From: Escherichia coli
GTDB lineage: Bacteria > Pseudomonadota > Gammaproteobacteria > Enterobacterales > Enterobacteriaceae
Assembly: GCF_003334355.1 (NCBI RefSeq)
Contig: NZ_QOWP01000020.1
Strand: one strand, 5' to 3'
Length of the DNA stretch: 64,000 nt
A program made the translations under genes and the position numbers. Each line of letters starts with the position of its first letter. Position 1 is the first letter of the stretch. Shown in pieces: positions 3,967 through 64,000 of the stretch. Under the pieces are notes generated by a model, which saw only the letters and a program-made list of their open reading frames with translations, was not told the DNA's origin and ran no database searches.

Positions 3967-4199
3967 TTATTTTGTAGTCTAGCCTTCTGGCCCTGTTACG
4001 CAACATCTCATCACCCCATTACCCTGAAATGATTAATAAAATTCTGTCTAAATTGAATACAAAAAGCAAAATGCTTTTCCGTATACAAACCGTGTGAAGT
4101 GTTAAATAGCGTCTATCATTATCAGAATTATCTGATCATATGACGTGGCTTTTTTGCGATCGGATAGCAACAAAAATTGATAAAAATAACGGGATCTCA

Positions 4200-5432
4200 A
4201 TGATTACGCACAACTTCAATACCCTGGACTTACTCACCAGTCCTGTCTGGATCGTTTCGCCCTTTGAGGAACAGTTAATTTATGCCAATAGCGCGGCGAA
4301 ACTGTTGATGCAAGACCTCACGTTTAGTCAGCTACGAACCGGACCCTATTCCGTCTCCTCACAAAAAGAACTGCCGAAATACCTCTCCGATCTGCAAAAC
4401 CAACACGATATTATCGAAATCCTCACTGTTCAGCGTAAAGAAGAGGAAACAGCATTGAGCTGTCGGCTTGTTTTGCGAAAGCTGACAGAAACAGAACCGG
4501 TGATTATTTTCGAAGGTATCGAAGCGCCGGCAACGCTGGGTTTAAAAGCCAGTCGCTCGGCAAATTATCAGCGCAAAAAACAAGGTTTTTATGCGCGCTT
4601 TTTTCTGACTAACTCTGCACCAATGTTGTTGATTGACCCGTCACGAGATGGACAAATCGTCGATGCTAACCTCGCCGCGCTCAATTTCTATGGTTATAAC
4701 CATGAAACGATGTGCCAGAAACATACCTGGGAAATAAATATGCTCGGGCGTCGCGTCATGCCTATCATGCATGAAATCTCGCATTTACCCGGTGGTCATA
4801 AACCTTTGAATTTTGTTCATAAACTGGCGGATGGTTCGACTGGTCATGTGCAGACCTATGCCGGACCGATTGAAATTTATGGCGACAAGCTCATGTTATG
4901 TATTGTGCATGATATTACTGAGCAAAAACGGCTGGAGGAGCAGCTGGAACATGCTGCTCACCATGACGCGATGACCGGATTACTGAATCGGCGACAGTTT
5001 TATCACATTACGGAACCAGGCCAAATGCAGCATCTCGCCATCGCTCAGGATTACAGCTTGTTGCTCATCGACACCGATCGTTTTAAACACATTAACGATC
5101 TCTATGGGCATTCTAAAGGTGATGAGGTGTTATGCGCCCTCGCCCGCACCCTCGAAAGTTGCGCTCGCAAAGGCGATTTGGTGTTTCGTTGGGGAGGCGA
5201 AGAGTTTGTCTTATTGCTACCAAGAACCCCACTGGATACCGCGCTTTCGCTGGCTGAAACTATCCGCGTAAGCGTGGCAAAAGTGAGTATTTCGGGCTTA
5301 CCACGCTTTACCGTCAGCATTGGTGTGGCGCATCACGAAGGAAATGAAAGCATCGATGAACTGTTTAAACGCGTTGATGATGCTTTGTATCGGGCGAAAA
5401 ATGATGGACGCAACCGCGTGCTGGCGGCATAA
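4200..5432 (+). CDS. dgcM: diguanylate cyclase DgcM (PAS-GGDEF)
   Basis: ORF 4140..5432; likely start is the ATG at 4200 (MITHNFNTLDL...); GGEEF motif present (RWGGEEFVLLL). Confidence 0.9.
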   Translation: MITHNFNTLDLLTSPVWIVSPFEEQLIYANSAAKLLMQDLTFSQLRTGPYSVSSQKELPKYLSDLQNQHDIIEILTVQRKEEETALSCRLVLRKLTETEPVIIFEGIEAPATLGLKASRSANYQRKKQGFYARFFLTNSAPMLLIDPSRDGQIVDANLAALNFYGYNHETMCQKHTWEINMLGRRVMPIMHEISHLPGGHKPLNFVHKLADGSTGHVQTYAGPIEIYGDKLMLCIVHDITEQKRLEEQLEHAAHHDAMTGLLNRRQFYHITEPGQMQHLAIAQDYSLLLIDTDRFKHINDLYGHSKGDEVLCALARTLESCARKGDLVFRWGGEEFVLLLPRTPLDTALSLAETIRVSVAKVSISGLPRFTVSIGVAHHEGNESIDELFKRVDDALYRAKNDGRNRVLAA

Positions 5433-6345: not shown

Positions 6346-7254
6346 TTAACTTTGCAGATAGCCGCATTCTCGCCGGAATTGCGTGATTAATGACGCGGTC
6401 AGTGGTGTCTGGCGACTATCACGCCGCTGAATCAAATAATAGGCCGCTTTCGGTAAAATTTCGCTAACCGGCAACATCACCAGCCCCTGTCCGTGCAAGG
6501 GATCGCAGCCCATTTCTTCAGGCAGTATGCTGAGAAAATCGCTTTTTGCCACCAGACTGATACAGGCTGAGAACGTCTCGCAGACTACACCGACCTGTGG
6601 CGTTTGCGCCTGATCGTCAAGCAATTCACTCAACTGTTTGTAGTAACTGCCGTGTGGCGTCGGCATTGTCCAGCTGTAATCCAGTAACTGTTTGATCGAA
6701 CGGGCACCAATGGCGGGGTGTCCCGGGCGGCAAAAGATCGCGAATTGCTTTTCCAGTAATTTCTCAAAAGTAAATTCGTGGTCGTACGGTCCCTGATAAT
6801 AGGTATTGATGGTGAAATCCAATTCTCCCTGACGCAATTCATTAATCATCGACACCAGTTGCCCTTCCATAATGCGTACTTTTACCTGCGGATGCTGCTG
6901 ATGAAAACGAGATATGACAGCTGGCATCAGACTGCGGGAAATACTGGCCCCCATGCCGATATTAATCTGCCCTGCCAGTTGCCCTTGTCGTTGGCGAATA
7001 TCCTCTTGGGCTGCGCGCAGCTCTTCAAGAATAAGACTGGCGTGCTGATAAAAACTTTCACCGGCATCAGTTAACGTCACGCCTTTACTACGGCGAAAAA
7101 AGAGTTGCGCCGCTAACCCTTCTTCCAGCTCCTGAATAGATTTACTCAGTGCCGGTTGCGACATATTCAACATTCGGCTCGCTCCGCGAATGCTGCCCTG
7201 ACGAGCCACTTCAACAAAAGCCCGAATTTGATGAATTTTTACCTGAAAAGCCAT
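6346..7254 (-). CDS. abgR: LysR-family transcriptional regulator AbgR
   Basis: 302-aa ORF with N-terminal LysR HTH; divergent from abgA. Confidence 0.92.
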   Translation of the reverse strand: MAFQVKIHQIRAFVEVARQGSIRGASRMLNMSQPALSKSIQELEEGLAAQLFFRRSKGVTLTDAGESFYQHASLILEELRAAQEDIRQRQGQLAGQINIGMGASISRSLMPAVISRFHQQHPQVKVRIMEGQLVSMINELRQGELDFTINTYYQGPYDHEFTFEKLLEKQFAIFCRPGHPAIGARSIKQLLDYSWTMPTPHGSYYKQLSELLDDQAQTPQVGVVCETFSACISLVAKSDFLSILPEEMGCDPLHGQGLVMLPVSEILPKAAYYLIQRRDSRQTPLTASLITQFRRECGYLQS

Positions 7255-46563: not shown

Positions 46564-48051
46564 TCAGGCCTCCAGGCTTATCCAGATGGTTTTCAGTTCG
46601 GTGAATTTTTCAAGGGCATGCAGGGATTTGTCGCGACCGTTGCCGCTCTGCTTATAGCCGCCAAACGGCACGGTCATATCGCCGTCGTTGTAGTTATTGA
46701 CGAAGACGGAACCAGCCTTCAGGCGGCGGCTCATGCGGTGCGCGCGGGAGAGGTCGCGCGTCCATACCGCCGCGCCAAGGCCGTACTGGCTGTCGTTGGC
46801 AAGCTGTAGCGCCTGTTCTTCTGATGTGAAACGCGTGACCACCAGCACCGGACCGAAAATCTCTTCGCGGCTTAAGGACGCATTCGGGTCTACATCCACA
46901 AAGATGGTCGGGCCGATGGCGGCAGCCAGCTCAGCGTTACGACCATCCAGCAGCAGTTGCCCTTTGCTTTCGCCTTCCCGAATAAAGCTATGGACCGAGT
47001 CGGCGTGGGCGCAGTCGATTAAGGTGCCCATGGTGGTTGCGGGATCAAGTGGATGGCCCGGCTGCCAGTTTTGCGCCTACTGTTTTAACAGGGCTAAGAA
47101 TTCATCGGCGATGCTCTCTTCCAGCAACAAACGCGTTCCGGCGATGCACACCTGGCCCTGGTTGTAGAAGATGCCTGCGGCGGTGGCGCTTGCCGCTTTT
47201 TACAGATCCGGACAATCGGCGAAAACGAGGTTGGCGCTTTTGCCGCCCGCTTCCAGCCAGACGCGTTTCATGTTGCTGTCGCCCGCATCTTTCAGCAGCT
47301 GTTTCCCGGTACGGGTTGAACCGGTAAAGGCAATGGCGTCGATATCGTTATGACGCGACAGCGCCTGCCCCGCTTCATGACCAAAACCCGTCACCACGTT
47401 CAACACACCATCCGGCAAGCCTGCTTCTTTCGCCAGCCCCGCGAGACGAATCGCACTGAGCGGTGATTTTTCAGACGGTTTTAGAATCACGCTGTTTCCC
47501 GCCGCCAGCGCCGGGCCGAGTTTCCAGCAAGTCAGCAACAGCGGGAAGTTCCACGGCACGATGGCGGCAATCACGCCGACCGGTTCACGCACGATCATCG
47601 CCAGCTCATGGCTACTGGTGGTCGCCACTTCGCCATACACTTTGTCGATCGCTTCGGCGTACCAGCGAATGGCGCGCGCCGCGCCGGGAATATCATCACG
47701 CAGACTGTGACGAATCGGTTTGCCGGTGTCGAGAGTTTCCAGCAGTGCCAGCTCTTCGGCGTGGGCTTCCATTAAATCGGCGAGTTTATTCAGTACCGCT
47801 TTACGTTTAGCCGGAGAAGAGAGTGACCAGTCGCCGCGTTCAAATACGCCGCGTGCTGCGCTCACCGCACGGTCGATATCGACGCTCTTGCCGCGGGCAA
47901 TTTTCGCCAGCGGTGCCTGGGTGACCGGATCAACGGTTTCAAAGGTTTCATTTTCCGCCGCAGCAGTATATTCACCGTTAATAAATAAGCGGTTTTCAAT
48001 GGCGAGACTTAACGCTTTATCCTGCCAGTAAGCCAGATGATGAAAATTCAT
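46564..48051 (-). pseudogene. puuC: gamma-glutamyl-gamma-aminobutyraldehyde dehydrogenase PuuC with two in-frame stop codons
   Basis: Aldehyde-dehydrogenase reading frame runs from the ATG at 48051 to 46564 in a single frame but contains TAA (47200-47202) after ...FADCPDL and TAG (47077-47079) after ...LALLKQ. Sequence between and after the stops remains ALDH-like (KAASATAAGIFYNQGQVCIAGTR...; AQNWQPGHPLDPATTMGTL...). Confidence 0.8.
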
Positions 48052-48909: not shown

Positions 48910-49674
48910 TCAGAGTCGCTGTTTTTCAGCGATATGGTGCTGACAAGCGGTGATAAAGCCCTCGAACAATATACGCGAAAGCGCGTACTCGCTACTGTTC
49001 CATTCCGGGTGCCACTGTACGCCCAGCGCAAAAGGATGATTGATGACGCTAACCGCCTCAACTAAGCCATCCGGCGAGCGAGCTTCAACACGCAACCGTG
49101 GGCTAACGACCTTCGCCCCTTGTCCATGCAGAGAGTTTACCCAAAAGTTGCTACATTCAGGTAACAACGCAGACAGTAATCCCCCCTCTTCAACCTGAAC
49201 TTCATGCGACGGTGCATATTGCTGTTCCACCGGCAGTTCGGGATCTTCCCGATGTTCCAGCAATTCAGGCTGTTCGCACAGCTTGCGATGCAACGAACCA
49301 CCGGTTGCCACCACCAGTTCCTGTAAACCCCGGCAGATGGCGAAAATGGGGATGCGCCTTTCGAGTGCGGCATTAATTAACGCCATGCTCAGAAGATCAC
49401 GCCCGGGATCGGCGTCAGGCTCATCGCCGTTTTCACCATATAGGTGCGGCTGCACATTGCTGGGACTACCAGGAAGATAAATGCCATCGAGTTTCGGCAA
49501 AAGTTGTTCAAGTAATGACGGTTCCGCCAGCGCATGTGGTAACGCAATTGGCAAGCCGCCTGCGTGGATGATGGCATTCAGGTACTTTTCTTGCAGAGTC
49601 TGGGTCGCATGACCCTTAAGCCTGTTCCTGCACATTACGACACCGATAACCGGATTGTTCATTATATTTTCCAT
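48910..49674 (-). CDS. puuD: gamma-glutamyl-GABA hydrolase PuuD
   Basis: ORF 48910..49686; likely start at 49674 (MENIMNNPVIGVV...), 254 aa; class-I glutamine amidotransferase-like. Confidence 0.93.
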   Translation of the reverse strand: MENIMNNPVIGVVMCRNRLKGHATQTLQEKYLNAIIHAGGLPIALPHALAEPSLLEQLLPKLDGIYLPGSPSNVQPHLYGENGDEPDADPGRDLLSMALINAALERRIPIFAICRGLQELVVATGGSLHRKLCEQPELLEHREDPELPVEQQYAPSHEVQVEEGGLLSALLPECSNFWVNSLHGQGAKVVSPRLRVEARSPDGLVEAVSVINHPFALGVQWHPEWNSSEYALSRILFEGFITACQHHIAEKQRL

Positions 49675-49885
49675 GCTCAATCTCACAAAGTGGACTAAAT
49701 TATCGCCATTACTGCGCTTTAAATGACCTTTATGTTCAATATTTTTTCAATCTAGCAGTGGGTTTTCATTTTTGCAAACTCAATTTAACATTTGACAAAC
49801 ATTTAGTTTGCATACAGATTCGAATGGTGGTCATTATATTTTACGCTTTGATAACGAGCGGAAAACAAACCAAAGGCGAAGAATC

Positions 49886-51303
49886 ATGGAAACCAATATC
49901 GTTGAAGTAGAGAACTTTGTTCAGCAGTCAGAAGAGAGGCGGGGTAGCGCCTTTACGCAGGAAGTGAAACGCTACCTGGAGCGCTACCCGAATACGCAAT
50001 ATGTTGATGTTTTACTTACCGATTTAAATGGTTGCTTCCGTGGAAAGCGTATTCCTGTTTCAAGCCTGAAGAAGCTCGAGAAAGGGTGTTATTCCCGGCC
50101 TCGGTATTTGCAATGGATATTCTGGGCAACGTAGTAGAAGAAGCAGGTCTGGGTCAGGAAATGGGCGAGCCGGATCGTACCTGTGTTCCTGTTCTCGGTT
50201 CCTTAACTCCTTCTGCCGCCGATCCAGAGTTTATCGGTCAGATGCTCCTGACCATGGTCGATGAAGATGGCGCTCCCTTTGACGTTGAGCCGCGGAACGT
50301 TCTTAACCGCCTGTGGCAGCAGCTGCGCCAGCGCGGATTGTTCCCGGTCGTAGCGGTAGAGCTGGAGTTCTATTTACTGGATCGCCAGCGCGACGCTGAA
50401 GGGTATCTGCAACCGCCCTGCGCGCCTGGCACCGATGACCGCAATACACAAAGCCAGGTTTACTCCGTTGATAACCTCAACCACTTCGCCGACGTGCTCA
50501 ATGATATTGATGAACTGGCGCAGTTACAGCTGATTCCGGCAGATGGCGCGGTCGCTGAGGCCTCGCCGGGTCAGTTTGAAATCAACCTTTACCATACTGA
50601 TAACGTGCTGGAAGCCTGCGATGATGCGCTGGCACTAAAACGCCTGGTGCGTCTGATGGCAGAAAAGCATAAGATGCACGCCACTTTTATGGCGAAGCCG
50701 TATGAAGAGCACGCGGGCAGCGGAATGCATATCCATATCAGTATGCAAAATAATCGTGGCGAGAACGTGCTTTCTGACGCGGAAGGCGAAGATTCGCCGC
50801 TGCTGAAAAAGATGCTCGCCGGGATGATTGACCTGATGCCGTCGTCGATGGCGTTGCTGGCACCAAACGTGAACTCGTATCGCCGCTTCCAGCCGGGAAT
50901 GTATGTGCCGACGCAGGCGTCGTGGGGCCATAACAACCGCACCGTCGCCCTGCGTATTCCGTGCGGCGACCGTCATAATCACCGCGTGGAATATCGCGTG
51001 GCGGGTGCCGATGCCAACCCATATCTGGTGATGGCAGCGATTTTTGCCGGTATTTTGCATGGCCTTGATAACGAGCTGCCGTTGCAGGAAGAAGTCGAAG
51101 GCAACGGGCTGGAACAGGAAGGCTTACCCTTTCCGATTCGCCAGAGCGATGCCCTGGGTGAGTTTATCGAGAATGATCACCTGCGCCGCTATTTAGGCGA
51201 ACGCTTCTGCCATGTCTATCACGCCTGTAAAAATGATGAGCTGTTGCAGTTTGAGCGCCTCATCACAGAAACAGAAATTGAGTGGATGTTGAAAAACGCG
51301 TAA
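49886..51303 (+). pseudogene. puuA: glutamate-putrescine ligase PuuA disrupted by a 1-bp deletion
   Basis: N-terminus METNIVEVENF...LEKGCY is in one frame and stops at 50132-50134. The glutamine-synthetase-like remainder (FPASVFAMDILGN... to MLKNA) is in the -1 frame (ORF 50032..51303). The junction is at tgttat-t-cccggcc (about 50090-50094), where one T appears to be missing. Confidence 0.8.
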
Positions 51304-60483: not shown

Positions 60484-60580
60484 TGTTATACCTTTCTGAT
60501 ATTTGTTATCGCCGATCCGTCTTTCTCCCCTTCCCGCCTTGCGTCAGGATAACGATTTCCTTTACGACCAAGGAGCGCCC

Positions 60581-61708
60581 ATGGAACAACGCCACATCAC
60601 CGGCAAAAGCCACTGGTATCATGAAACGCAATCCAGTACTGCGGAGTATGACGTTCTGCCTCTGGTCCCGGAAGCCGCAAAGGTCAGCGATCCCTTTCTG
60701 CTCGACGTGATCCTTGATGAAGAAACGCTGGCTCCCTTCCTTTCATGGCTGGTCCCTGCGCGCGTTCTTGCAGTGGAATTGTTCCCTGACCAGCTTACCG
60801 TGACCCGTTCACAGACCTTCACCGCTTATGAACGCTTGTCTACGGCCCTGACGGTTGCTCAGGTTTGCGGCGTCCAGCGGTTATGTAACTACTATTCGGC
60901 GCGACTTACGCCGCTCCCCGGGCCTGATTCCTCCAGGGAAAGCAATCATAGGTTGGCACAAATCACGCAATATGCCCGCCAACTGGCTAGCTCGCCTTCT
61001 ATTATCGACAACCGATCGCGCCAGCATCTGAATGACGTCGGTCTTACTGCCTGGGACTGTGTGATCATTAACCAAATCATTGGTTTTATTGGCTTTCAGG
61101 CGCGGACCATTGCGACATTTCAGGCTTATCTCGGGCACCCGGTACGCTGGTTACCCGGTCTGGAAATACAAAACTACGCCGACGCGTCACTGTTTGCTGA
61201 TGAATCAATACGCTGGCGAAGCAGCTATGAGGTGGAAAAACTACCTGAAGAGTACACAAAAAGTTCAACTGCAGAACTTTGCCAACTGGCCGAAACACTC
61301 TCTCTCCACCCTATTTCACTTTCCCTTCTCGAAAGGTTGTTAAACAGTACACGGGTTAATACACAGCCGGATAATAAGCTTGCGGCGTTGTTATGCGCGC
61401 GGATAAATGGCAGTCCTGCTTGTTTTGCCGCCTGTATGGATTCATCAAATGAATATAAAAAAATCAGCGCTCTTGTGCGCAAGGGCGAAAATGAAATTAA
61501 CCAATGGGCTGACCGTCATTCTGTTGAGCACGCTACCGTTCAGGCGATACAATGGCTGACCCGAGCACCCGATCGCTTTAGCGCCGCCCAGTTCAGCCCT
61601 TTACTCGAACACGAAAAATCATCAACGCAGATTATTAATCTGCTGGTATGGAGCGGGCTGTGTGGCTGGATAAATCGCTTAAAAATCGCGTTGGGTGAGA
61701 CATATTAA
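60581..61708 (+). CDS. yciW: YciW (AhpD/CMD-like oxidoreductase family)
   Basis: ORF 60503..61708; likely start at 60581 (MEQRHITGK...) after aggagcg RBS; 375 aa. Confidence 0.88.
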
Positions 61709-61775: not shown

Positions 61776-63710
61776 ATGTTTCAGGACAACCCGCTGCTAG
61801 CGCAGCTTAAACAGCAACTGCATTCCCAGACGCCACGCGCTGAAGGGGTGGTAAAAGCCACAGAAAAAGGCTTTGGCTTCCTGGAAGTCGACGCGCAAAA
61901 AAGTTATTTCATTCCGCCGCCGCAGATGAAAAAAGTCATGCATGGCGACCGAATTATCGCGGTGATCCACAGTGAAAAAGAACGTGAATCCGCAGAGCCA
62001 GAAGAACTGGTTGAACCGTTCCTGACTCGTTTCGTGGGTAAGGTTCAGGGCAAAAATGACCGTCTGGCCATCGTTCCTGATCATCCACTCTTAAAAGACG
62101 CCATTCCTTGCCGCGCAGCCCGTGGCCTGAACCACGAGTTTAAAGAAGGCGACTGGGCGGTTGCCGAAATGCGCCGTCATCCGCTGAAAGGCGATCGTTC
62201 TTTCTATGCAGAACTGACACAATACATCACTTTTGGTGACGATCACTTTGTACCGTGGTGGGTTACCCTTGCACGCCATAATCTGGAAAAAGAAGCACCA
62301 GACGGCGTCGCTACCGAAATGCTCGATGAAGGTCTGGTTCGTGAAGATCTGACCGCGCTGGATTTTGTCACCATCGACAGTGCCAGCACAGAAGATATGG
62401 ATGACGCCCTTTTCGCTAAGGCGTTGCCGGATGACAAACTTCAGCTGATTGTGGCGATTGCCGATCCAACCGCGTGGATTGCTGAAGGCAGCAAGCTGGA
62501 CAAAGCCGCGAAAATTCGCGCATTCACCAACTATCTGCCTGGCTTCAACATCCCTATGCTGCCTCGCGAGCTTTCTGACGATCTCTGCTCACTGCGCGCC
62601 AATGAAGTCCGCCCGGTACTGGCATGCCGCATGACGCTCTCCGCTGATGGCACCATTGAAGATAATATCGAATTCTTTGCCGCCACCATCGAATCCAAAG
62701 CAAAGCTGGTGTATGACCAGGTTTCTGACTGGCTGGAAAATACCGGTGACTGGCAGCCTGAAAGTGAAGCAATTGCCGAACAAGTCCGTTTGCTAGCGCA
62801 AATTTGCCAACGCCGCGGCGAGTGGCGTCATAACCACGCACTGGTGTTTAAAGATCGCCCGGATTACCGCTTTATTCTCGGTGAAAAAGGTGAAGTGCTG
62901 GATATCGTCGCCGAGCCTCGTCGCATTGCCAACCGTATCGTCGAAGAAGCGATGATTGCCGCTAACATTTGTGCGGCCCGCGTACTGCGCGATAAGCTCG
63001 GTTTTGGCATCTATAACGTGCATATGGGCTTTGATCCGGCGAATGCCGACGCGCTGGCAGCGTTGCTGAAAACGCACGGTCTGCATGTCGATGCCGAAGA
63101 AGTGCTCACGCTGGACGGTTTCTGCAAACTGCGTCGTGAACTGGATGCGCAACCAACTGGTTTCCTCGACAGCCGCATTCGTCGCTTCCAGTCATTTGCT
63201 GAAATTAGCACTGAACCCGGTCCTCACTTTGGCCTCGGTCTGGAAGCATACGCCACCTGGACATCGCCGATCCGTAAATATGGCGACATGATCAACCACC
63301 GTCTGCTGAAAGCGGTTATCAAAGGCGAAACTGCGACGCGTCCACAGGATGAGATCACTGTCCAAATGGCCGAGCGTCGCCGTCTCAATCGGATGGCAGA
63401 ACGTGATGTTGGTGACTGGTTATACGCACGCTTCCTGAAAGACAAAGCCGGGACCGACACCCGTTTCGCGGCGGAAATTGTCGATATCAGCCGTGGCGGC
63501 ATGCGTGTTCGTTTGGTTGATAACGGCGCTATCGCCTTTATTCCTGCACCTTTCTTACACGCTGTGCGCGATGAAATGGTTTGCAGCCAGGAAAACGGCA
63601 CCGTACAAATTAAAGGTGAAACGGTTTATAAAGTAACTGACGTTATTGACGTCACCATTGCCGAAGTCCGCATGGAAACCCGCAGCATTATTGCGCGCCC
63701 GGTCGCGTAA
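61776..63710 (+). CDS. rnb: exoribonuclease II
   Basis: 644-aa ORF with RNB domain and C-terminal S1 domain; matches RNase II. Confidence 0.97.
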
Positions 63711-63720
63711 TCTCCTTTCA

Positions 63721-63752
63721 CGGCCCATTCCTTATGAATGGGCCGTTTATTT
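63721..63752 (+). terminator. intrinsic terminator after rnb
   Basis: Hairpin cggcccattccttatgaatgggccg followed by tttattt. Confidence 0.8.
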
Positions 63753-63820
63753 CCCCGCTCTACCTTCATCATATCCCGGCAGTTTTTTAACTGACTTTCG
63801 TTTGAAAACTGGCGTTTTTC

Positions 63821-64000
63821 GGTGATGCTGCCAACTTACTGATTTAGTGTATGATGGTGTTTTTGAGGTGCTCCAGTGGCTTCTGTTTCTATCAGCTGTC
63901 CCTCCTGTTCAGCTACTGACGGGGTGGTGCGTAACGGCAAAAGCACTGCCGGACATCAGCGCTATCTCTGCTCTCACTGCCGTAAAACATGGCAACTGCA
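63821..64000 (+). mobile_element. IS1 insertion sequence, left end, truncated by the window edge
   Basis: ggtgatgctgccaacttactgatttagtgtatgatggtgtttttgaggtgctccagtggcttctgtttctatcagc... matches my recollection of the IS1 left terminal inverted repeat and the beginning of insA. Confidence 0.9.
63876..64000 (+). CDS. insA: IS1 InsA (partial, 5' part only)
   Basis: GTG start then [40 protein letters not shown]..., the InsA N-terminal zinc-finger region; the ORF continues beyond the window. Confidence 0.85.

Follow-up and report, generated by a model that had tools for sequence, protein, structure and literature searches.

IS1 elements are normally 768 bp long and duplicate 8 or 9 bp of target DNA, and the promoter of the element is very weak (PMC12428005). 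The IS1 'consensus' copy of E. coli K-12 MG1655, IS1A (NC_000913.3 19796-20563), occupies a chromosomal site other than rnb-pdeR. IS1 ends are also known to make fusion promoters with the sequence beside them; Table 1 of PMC9330008 lists such cases at bla-TEM-1 and acrEF (Prentki et al. 1986; Olliver et al. 2005). Here we describe an IS1 end that lies between rnb and pdeR at the edge of a 64,000-base stretch of E. coli DNA, referred to as the window. It is an ordinary IS1 insertion, an event of a familiar type, seen here in a rare E. coli lineage, and a public RefSeq genome, that of strain PSS-12, already has this insertion annotated.

The window closes with 180 bases (63821-64000, + strand) that are the left end of an IS1 element, for which a full length of 768 bp is expected. 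They comprise the left inverted repeat (IRL) and the first 41 codons of insA, and insA/insB are co-directional with rnb and pdeR. The 23-bp IRL (63821-63843, +) reads GGTGATGCTGCCAACTTACTGAT without a mismatch. A scan of the 64-kb window that tolerates up to three mismatches finds this site alone, where shuffled sequences would give none, and reveals no second IS1 copy. The insA frame begins with a GTG at IS1 position 56 (window 63876), and 41 full codons, covering the zinc-binding domain, are visible before the window ends (63876-64000, +). Their translation scores 43.5 bits against the IS1/IS1595 N-terminal zinc-binding domain (NCBIfam NF050000), for which the cut-off is 28. Against the model of the full-length IS1 transposase the score is 34, with a cut-off of 100, a low value that is explained by just 41 residues lying in the window.

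At the nucleotide level, the 180 bases are identical to the IS1 of PSS-12, which was isolated from human faeces in Ecuador (180/180), and differ at one position from K-12 IS1A (179/180) and from the IS1B of strain TUM1881. The single mismatch to IS1A and IS1B, a T for C at IS1 position 127, keeps the threonine codon. All the defining features of IS1 for which the window can be tested are present, namely the IRL, the position and domain of insA, and near-identity to the reference copies. The earlier note, written from the sequence of the window, had read these bases as the left inverted repeat and 5' insA region of IS1, and the exact IRL, the perfect match to the PSS-12 element and the insA domain match all confirm that reading. 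A promoter-like site, CTGCCA-16-TATGAT, lies in or beside the IRL (63828-63855, +). It is a match to the consensus, found by scanning the identical sequence in the PSS-12 comparison region (L001 8529-8556), and its position is where the weak IS1 transposase promoter is expected, making it a candidate for that promoter.

The comparison region for PSS-12 (L001) was put together from three retrieved segments. In the final 24 kb of the window PSS-12 is the nearest genome, at 99.9% identity versus 99.4% for the next best. Across all 64,000 bases the two are collinear and 99.96% identical, differing by 26 substitutions, spread evenly, and by two indels of one base each. Shigella, a group rich in IS1, seems an unlikely source, as the window has a single IS1 end in 64 kb and this close a match to an E. 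coli genome. The junction on the rnb side is the same in both (701 of 701 bases), with IS1 in the same orientation. The sole structural difference is an IS1203 element (IS3 family) inside yciW of PSS-12 (L001 4658-5871), whose 3-bp target is unoccupied in the window (61213-61215, within yciW at 60503-61708, +). With its yciW free of IS1203 and 28 positions at which it differs, the window comes from a sister strain of PSS-12 and not from the PSS-12 assembly. One or more later IS events thus separate the sister strains. The junction that they have in common is best accounted for by a single insertion in a shared ancestor.

The two strains also differ in the putrescine-utilisation (Puu) genes. 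In the window, puuA (49886-51303, +) carries a 1-bp deletion near 50092, absent from PSS-12, that leads to a stop at codon 83, and puuD (48910-49686, -) is intact; in PSS-12, puuD is frameshifted in a C run. The gene puuC (46564-48051, -) has a stop at codon 284 in both strains and a second one, at codon 325, in the window only. From their reading frames, the Puu genes look to be decaying in this lineage. The single-base indels in puuA and puuD could be sequencing errors, which is less likely for the puuC stop that the two strains share.

The PSS-12 genome contains the complete element. This copy (AABK13_RS04385; NZ_AP027697.1, 878888-879655), annotated as 'IS1-like element IS1A family transposase', is 768 bp long (L001 8522-9289). 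Its right inverted repeat pairs with the IRL at 18 of 23 positions, an A6C motif, AAAAAAC, the kind of site at which a -1 frameshift yields the InsAB' transposase of IS1, is found at position 307, and the transposase is annotated as intact with a programmed frameshift. The element is flanked by direct copies of cgtttttc (L001 8514-8521 and 9290-9297), and none of the flanking sequence has been deleted. The left copy of this octamer is present in the window at 63813-63820, with the right copy expected past position 64000. The earlier note had proposed a longer duplication of 9 to 10 bp, ggcgttttt(c) at 63812-63820; this has to be shortened, as the duplication in PSS-12 is 8 bp, cgtttttc, corresponding to 63813-63820. 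A length of 9 bp is rejected because the right copy in PSS-12 is preceded by a C, the last base of IS1, where a ninth duplicated base would have to be G. At the empty sites of K-12 and of strain QL57EC (L002 6514-6521) the octamer is single-copy. In PSS-12, pdeR starts 132 bp past the right end of IS1 and has no internal stop, and its product differs from K-12 PdeR at seven residues.

Upstream of the insertion, rnb (61776-63710, +) encodes an intact RNase II of 644 residues; the annotations of PSS-12, QL57EC, TUM1881 and K-12 likewise show rnb here. It is followed by an intrinsic terminator (63720-63752, +), identified by a terminator scan and by reading of the sequence. The terminator consists of a G+C-rich hairpin of 11 pairs, ACGGCCCATTC-CTTAT-GAATGGGCCGT (63720-63746), and the tract TTATTT; the scan was made on the identical sequence in the QL57EC (L002) and PSS-12 (L001) regions. 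Both rnb and its terminator lie upstream of IS1 and are untouched. IS1 starts 110 bp past the rnb stop codon and 68 bp past the T tract, and the 68 bases in between are an AT-rich spacer. This distance fits the earlier note, which had placed the element directly 3' of rnb and about 70 bp beyond the terminator. Its suggestion that K-12 has no IS1 here is also correct: the rnb-pdeR interval of MG1655 contains no mobile element and only ymiB.

In K-12, ymiB is a putative ORF of 34 amino acids on the strand opposite to rnb and pdeR, with the translation MTYMKLTAAKRIVFFIYLFVIQFWKNASFQTKVS in both K-12 and QL57EC. The insertion point is 34 bp from its 3' end, and the last 8 codons are lost. By comparison with the K-12 annotation and the translations, the 34 bases before IS1 in the window (63787-63820, -) are the 3' remnant of ymiB that the element has detached. 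In PSS-12 the frame is 27 amino acids long and terminates in the right end of IS1 as ...FWKNG*, versus ...FWKNASFQTKVS* for the 34-residue form. No function for ymiB was found in the literature that we searched.

We asked how often the rnb-pdeR spacer, 234 bp in length, is interrupted. An empty-site query of 481 bp, centred on the insertion site and counted when at least 80% of it was covered in one place, is covered in 5413 of 5426 complete E. coli genomes. The spacer is thus almost always intact, being disrupted or missing in about 13 of the 5426. As one unbroken 100% match, the rnb-IS1 junction is found in PSS-12 only (1/5426), and a query for the right-hand junction likewise retrieves PSS-12 only. 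The exact 36-bp junction has no match in contigs representing one genome per species or in JGI metagenome contigs.

Other IS insertions are found around pdeR in four further complete E. coli genomes. TUM1881 carries an IS1 (L003 7214-7981) 19 bp upstream of the window's site, in the same orientation and with the target duplication gactttcgt. Beside this IS1B copy, an IS200C (L003 about 6454-7160) directly follows the rnb hairpin, replacing the T tract. In 1919D3 (L008 about 843-1611) and AR_0369 (L009 1-248), IS1 lies in the opposite orientation, about 25-33 bp and about 47 bp, respectively, before the pdeR ATG. In QL57EC the element is inside pdeR (L002 7250-8017), with the target duplication tgtttcgca. 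The IS1 insertions of TUM1881, 1919D3 and AR_0369 are within the same 234-bp spacer as that of the window. All four resemble the window's insertion in element family and in the small region that was hit, and they represent independent events, as the sites, the duplications, the IS1 variants and, in 1919D3 and AR_0369, the orientation differ from it.

Taken together, the data make it very probable that a complete, ordinary IS1 transposed into the rnb-pdeR spacer in an ancestor shared with PSS-12 and was then inherited vertically. In this event the element would have landed in the AT-rich 234-bp spacer and duplicated the 8 bp cgtttttc. Past position 64000 we would expect, most likely, 588 further bases of IS1, containing the rest of insA, the A6C site, insB and the right inverted repeat, and this right half is most likely the same as in the PSS-12 copy. 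The right end should be followed by a second cgtttttc and then by CAAAACTGGATTAC... / CAAAACTGG..., and pdeR, predicted from PSS-12 to be intact, should begin 132 bp past the end of IS1 in the window strain as well.

As the window ends inside IS1, 180 bp into the element, the same 180 bases could in principle bound an IS1-mediated deletion or inversion, or a composite segment, peculiar to the window strain, in which case pdeR would not come next. IS1 copies able to recombine are numerous in genomes of this group (21 places with IS1 in PSS-12; median across genomes, 10), and the IS1203 in yciW already distinguishes the two strains by at least one IS event. The sole genome that shares the junction, however, is also the nearest relative, and there the flanks are intact and contiguous and the 8 bp perfectly duplicated, as in a simple insertion. 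The window is otherwise strictly collinear with PSS-12. A rearrangement is therefore improbable, and the two accounts predict different sequences: for a simple insertion, the right end of IS1 would run into cgtttttccaaaactgg (cgtttttccaaaactggattac), with pdeR next. That the IS1 end was misjoined to the rnb contig during assembly is hardly credible. Repeated IS copies do commonly induce such errors, but an independently assembled complete genome, PSS-12, has the identical junction, and the right junction with its target duplication in PSS-12 could not be produced by a misjoin.

PdeR, a c-di-GMP trigger enzyme, holds DgcM and MlrA in check, gating csgD/curli expression, and its gene entered the literature as gmr, a modulator of RNase II. 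The gene of its diguanylate cyclase partner, dgcM, is present in the same window (4140-5432, +), about 58 kb from IS1, and appears intact as an ORF of 430 residues. Pesavento and Hengge (PMC3367168) locate the motif CAAAACTG in the spacer of the sigma-S-dependent promoter of yciR (= pdeR = gmr), which Cairrao et al. 2001 had proposed, and describe FliZ as shielding DNA from the promoter spacer through the -35 element and farther upstream. We find CAAAACTG once in the 7.5-kb rnb-pdeR region of K-12, at -124 to -117 from the pdeR ATG, and its first base directly follows the target octamer cgtttttc. Since the insertion adjoins this spacer motif, IS1 is placed at about the -35 side of the published pdeR promoter. 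After the insertion, as seen in PSS-12, the 8 duplicated bases alone separate CAAAACTG from the right end of IS1. The sequence upstream of about -35, and with it the more distal portion of the FliZ footprint, would thus be displaced by 776 bp, with the right end of IS1 in its stead. Our literature search for pdeR together with IS1 returned nothing on the rnb-pdeR locus.

We scanned the empty and the occupied site for promoters. A stringent scan with the sigma-70 consensus detects no promoter in the empty site, and in the occupied site only the one internal to IS1. A relaxed hexamer scan gives weak candidates only, with at most 8 of 12 matches and equal scores with and without the insertion; the best -35-like hexamers match at 3 of 6 positions both before and after. 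A candidate hybrid promoter, TTGGAG-17-AAAACT, has 3/6 matches to TTGACA, 3/6 to TATAAT and 4/6 to the alternative -10 hexamer TATACT.

These observations raise the question whether the insertion is also a regulatory mutation. By splitting the pdeR promoter at about -35, IS1 might lower the expression controlled by sigma-S and FliZ, or a hybrid promoter or read-through from IS1 might take over; we regard such a change as possible but, on balance, doubtful. With the same reserve, either outcome is predicted to shift the PdeR-DgcM-MlrA switch for curli and biofilm, and possibly RNase II levels. The proximity to CAAAACTG and to the DNA protected by FliZ, the fusion promoters recorded elsewhere for IS1 ends and the intact pdeR of PSS-12 all speak for an effect, as do the insertions in other genomes, with three further independent IS1 copies in the same 234-bp spacer and one inside pdeR. 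On the other hand, the 8-bp duplication restores the bases beside the promoter spacer, the -35-like hexamers are equally poor with and without IS1, and promoters recognized by sigma-S are established to depend little on the -35 element. Disruption or loss of the spacer in only about 13 of the 5426 genomes also argues against it. A stronger proposal is that IS1 at the -35 edge is a selected change that uncouples PdeR, and with it curli, biofilm and RNase II, from stationary-phase control, and that the recurrence of IS1 in the spacer reflects selection on pdeR expression and not just a preference for AT-rich DNA. We consider this proposal unlikely. As judged from sequence, a regulatory effect would be compatible both with the anatomy of the insertion and with its origin as a simple insertion.

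The insertion is mainly a lineage marker that ties the window strain to PSS-12, the one carrier among 5426 complete genomes. Its position on the pdeR promoter gives it possible physiological relevance: an effect on pdeR expression is possible, and if expression were altered, biofilm behaviour would change.

Comparison with the described systems places this element close to the archetype. Length (768 bp), inverted repeats and the arrangement of insA and insB are common to K-12 IS1A and the PSS-12 copy, which differ at 5 of 768 positions. As in the fusion promoters of bla-TEM-1 and acrEF, the right end of IS1 abuts the gene, here at about the -35 position of the pdeR promoter. Unlike in those cases, the hybrid promoter at pdeR is a weak candidate.
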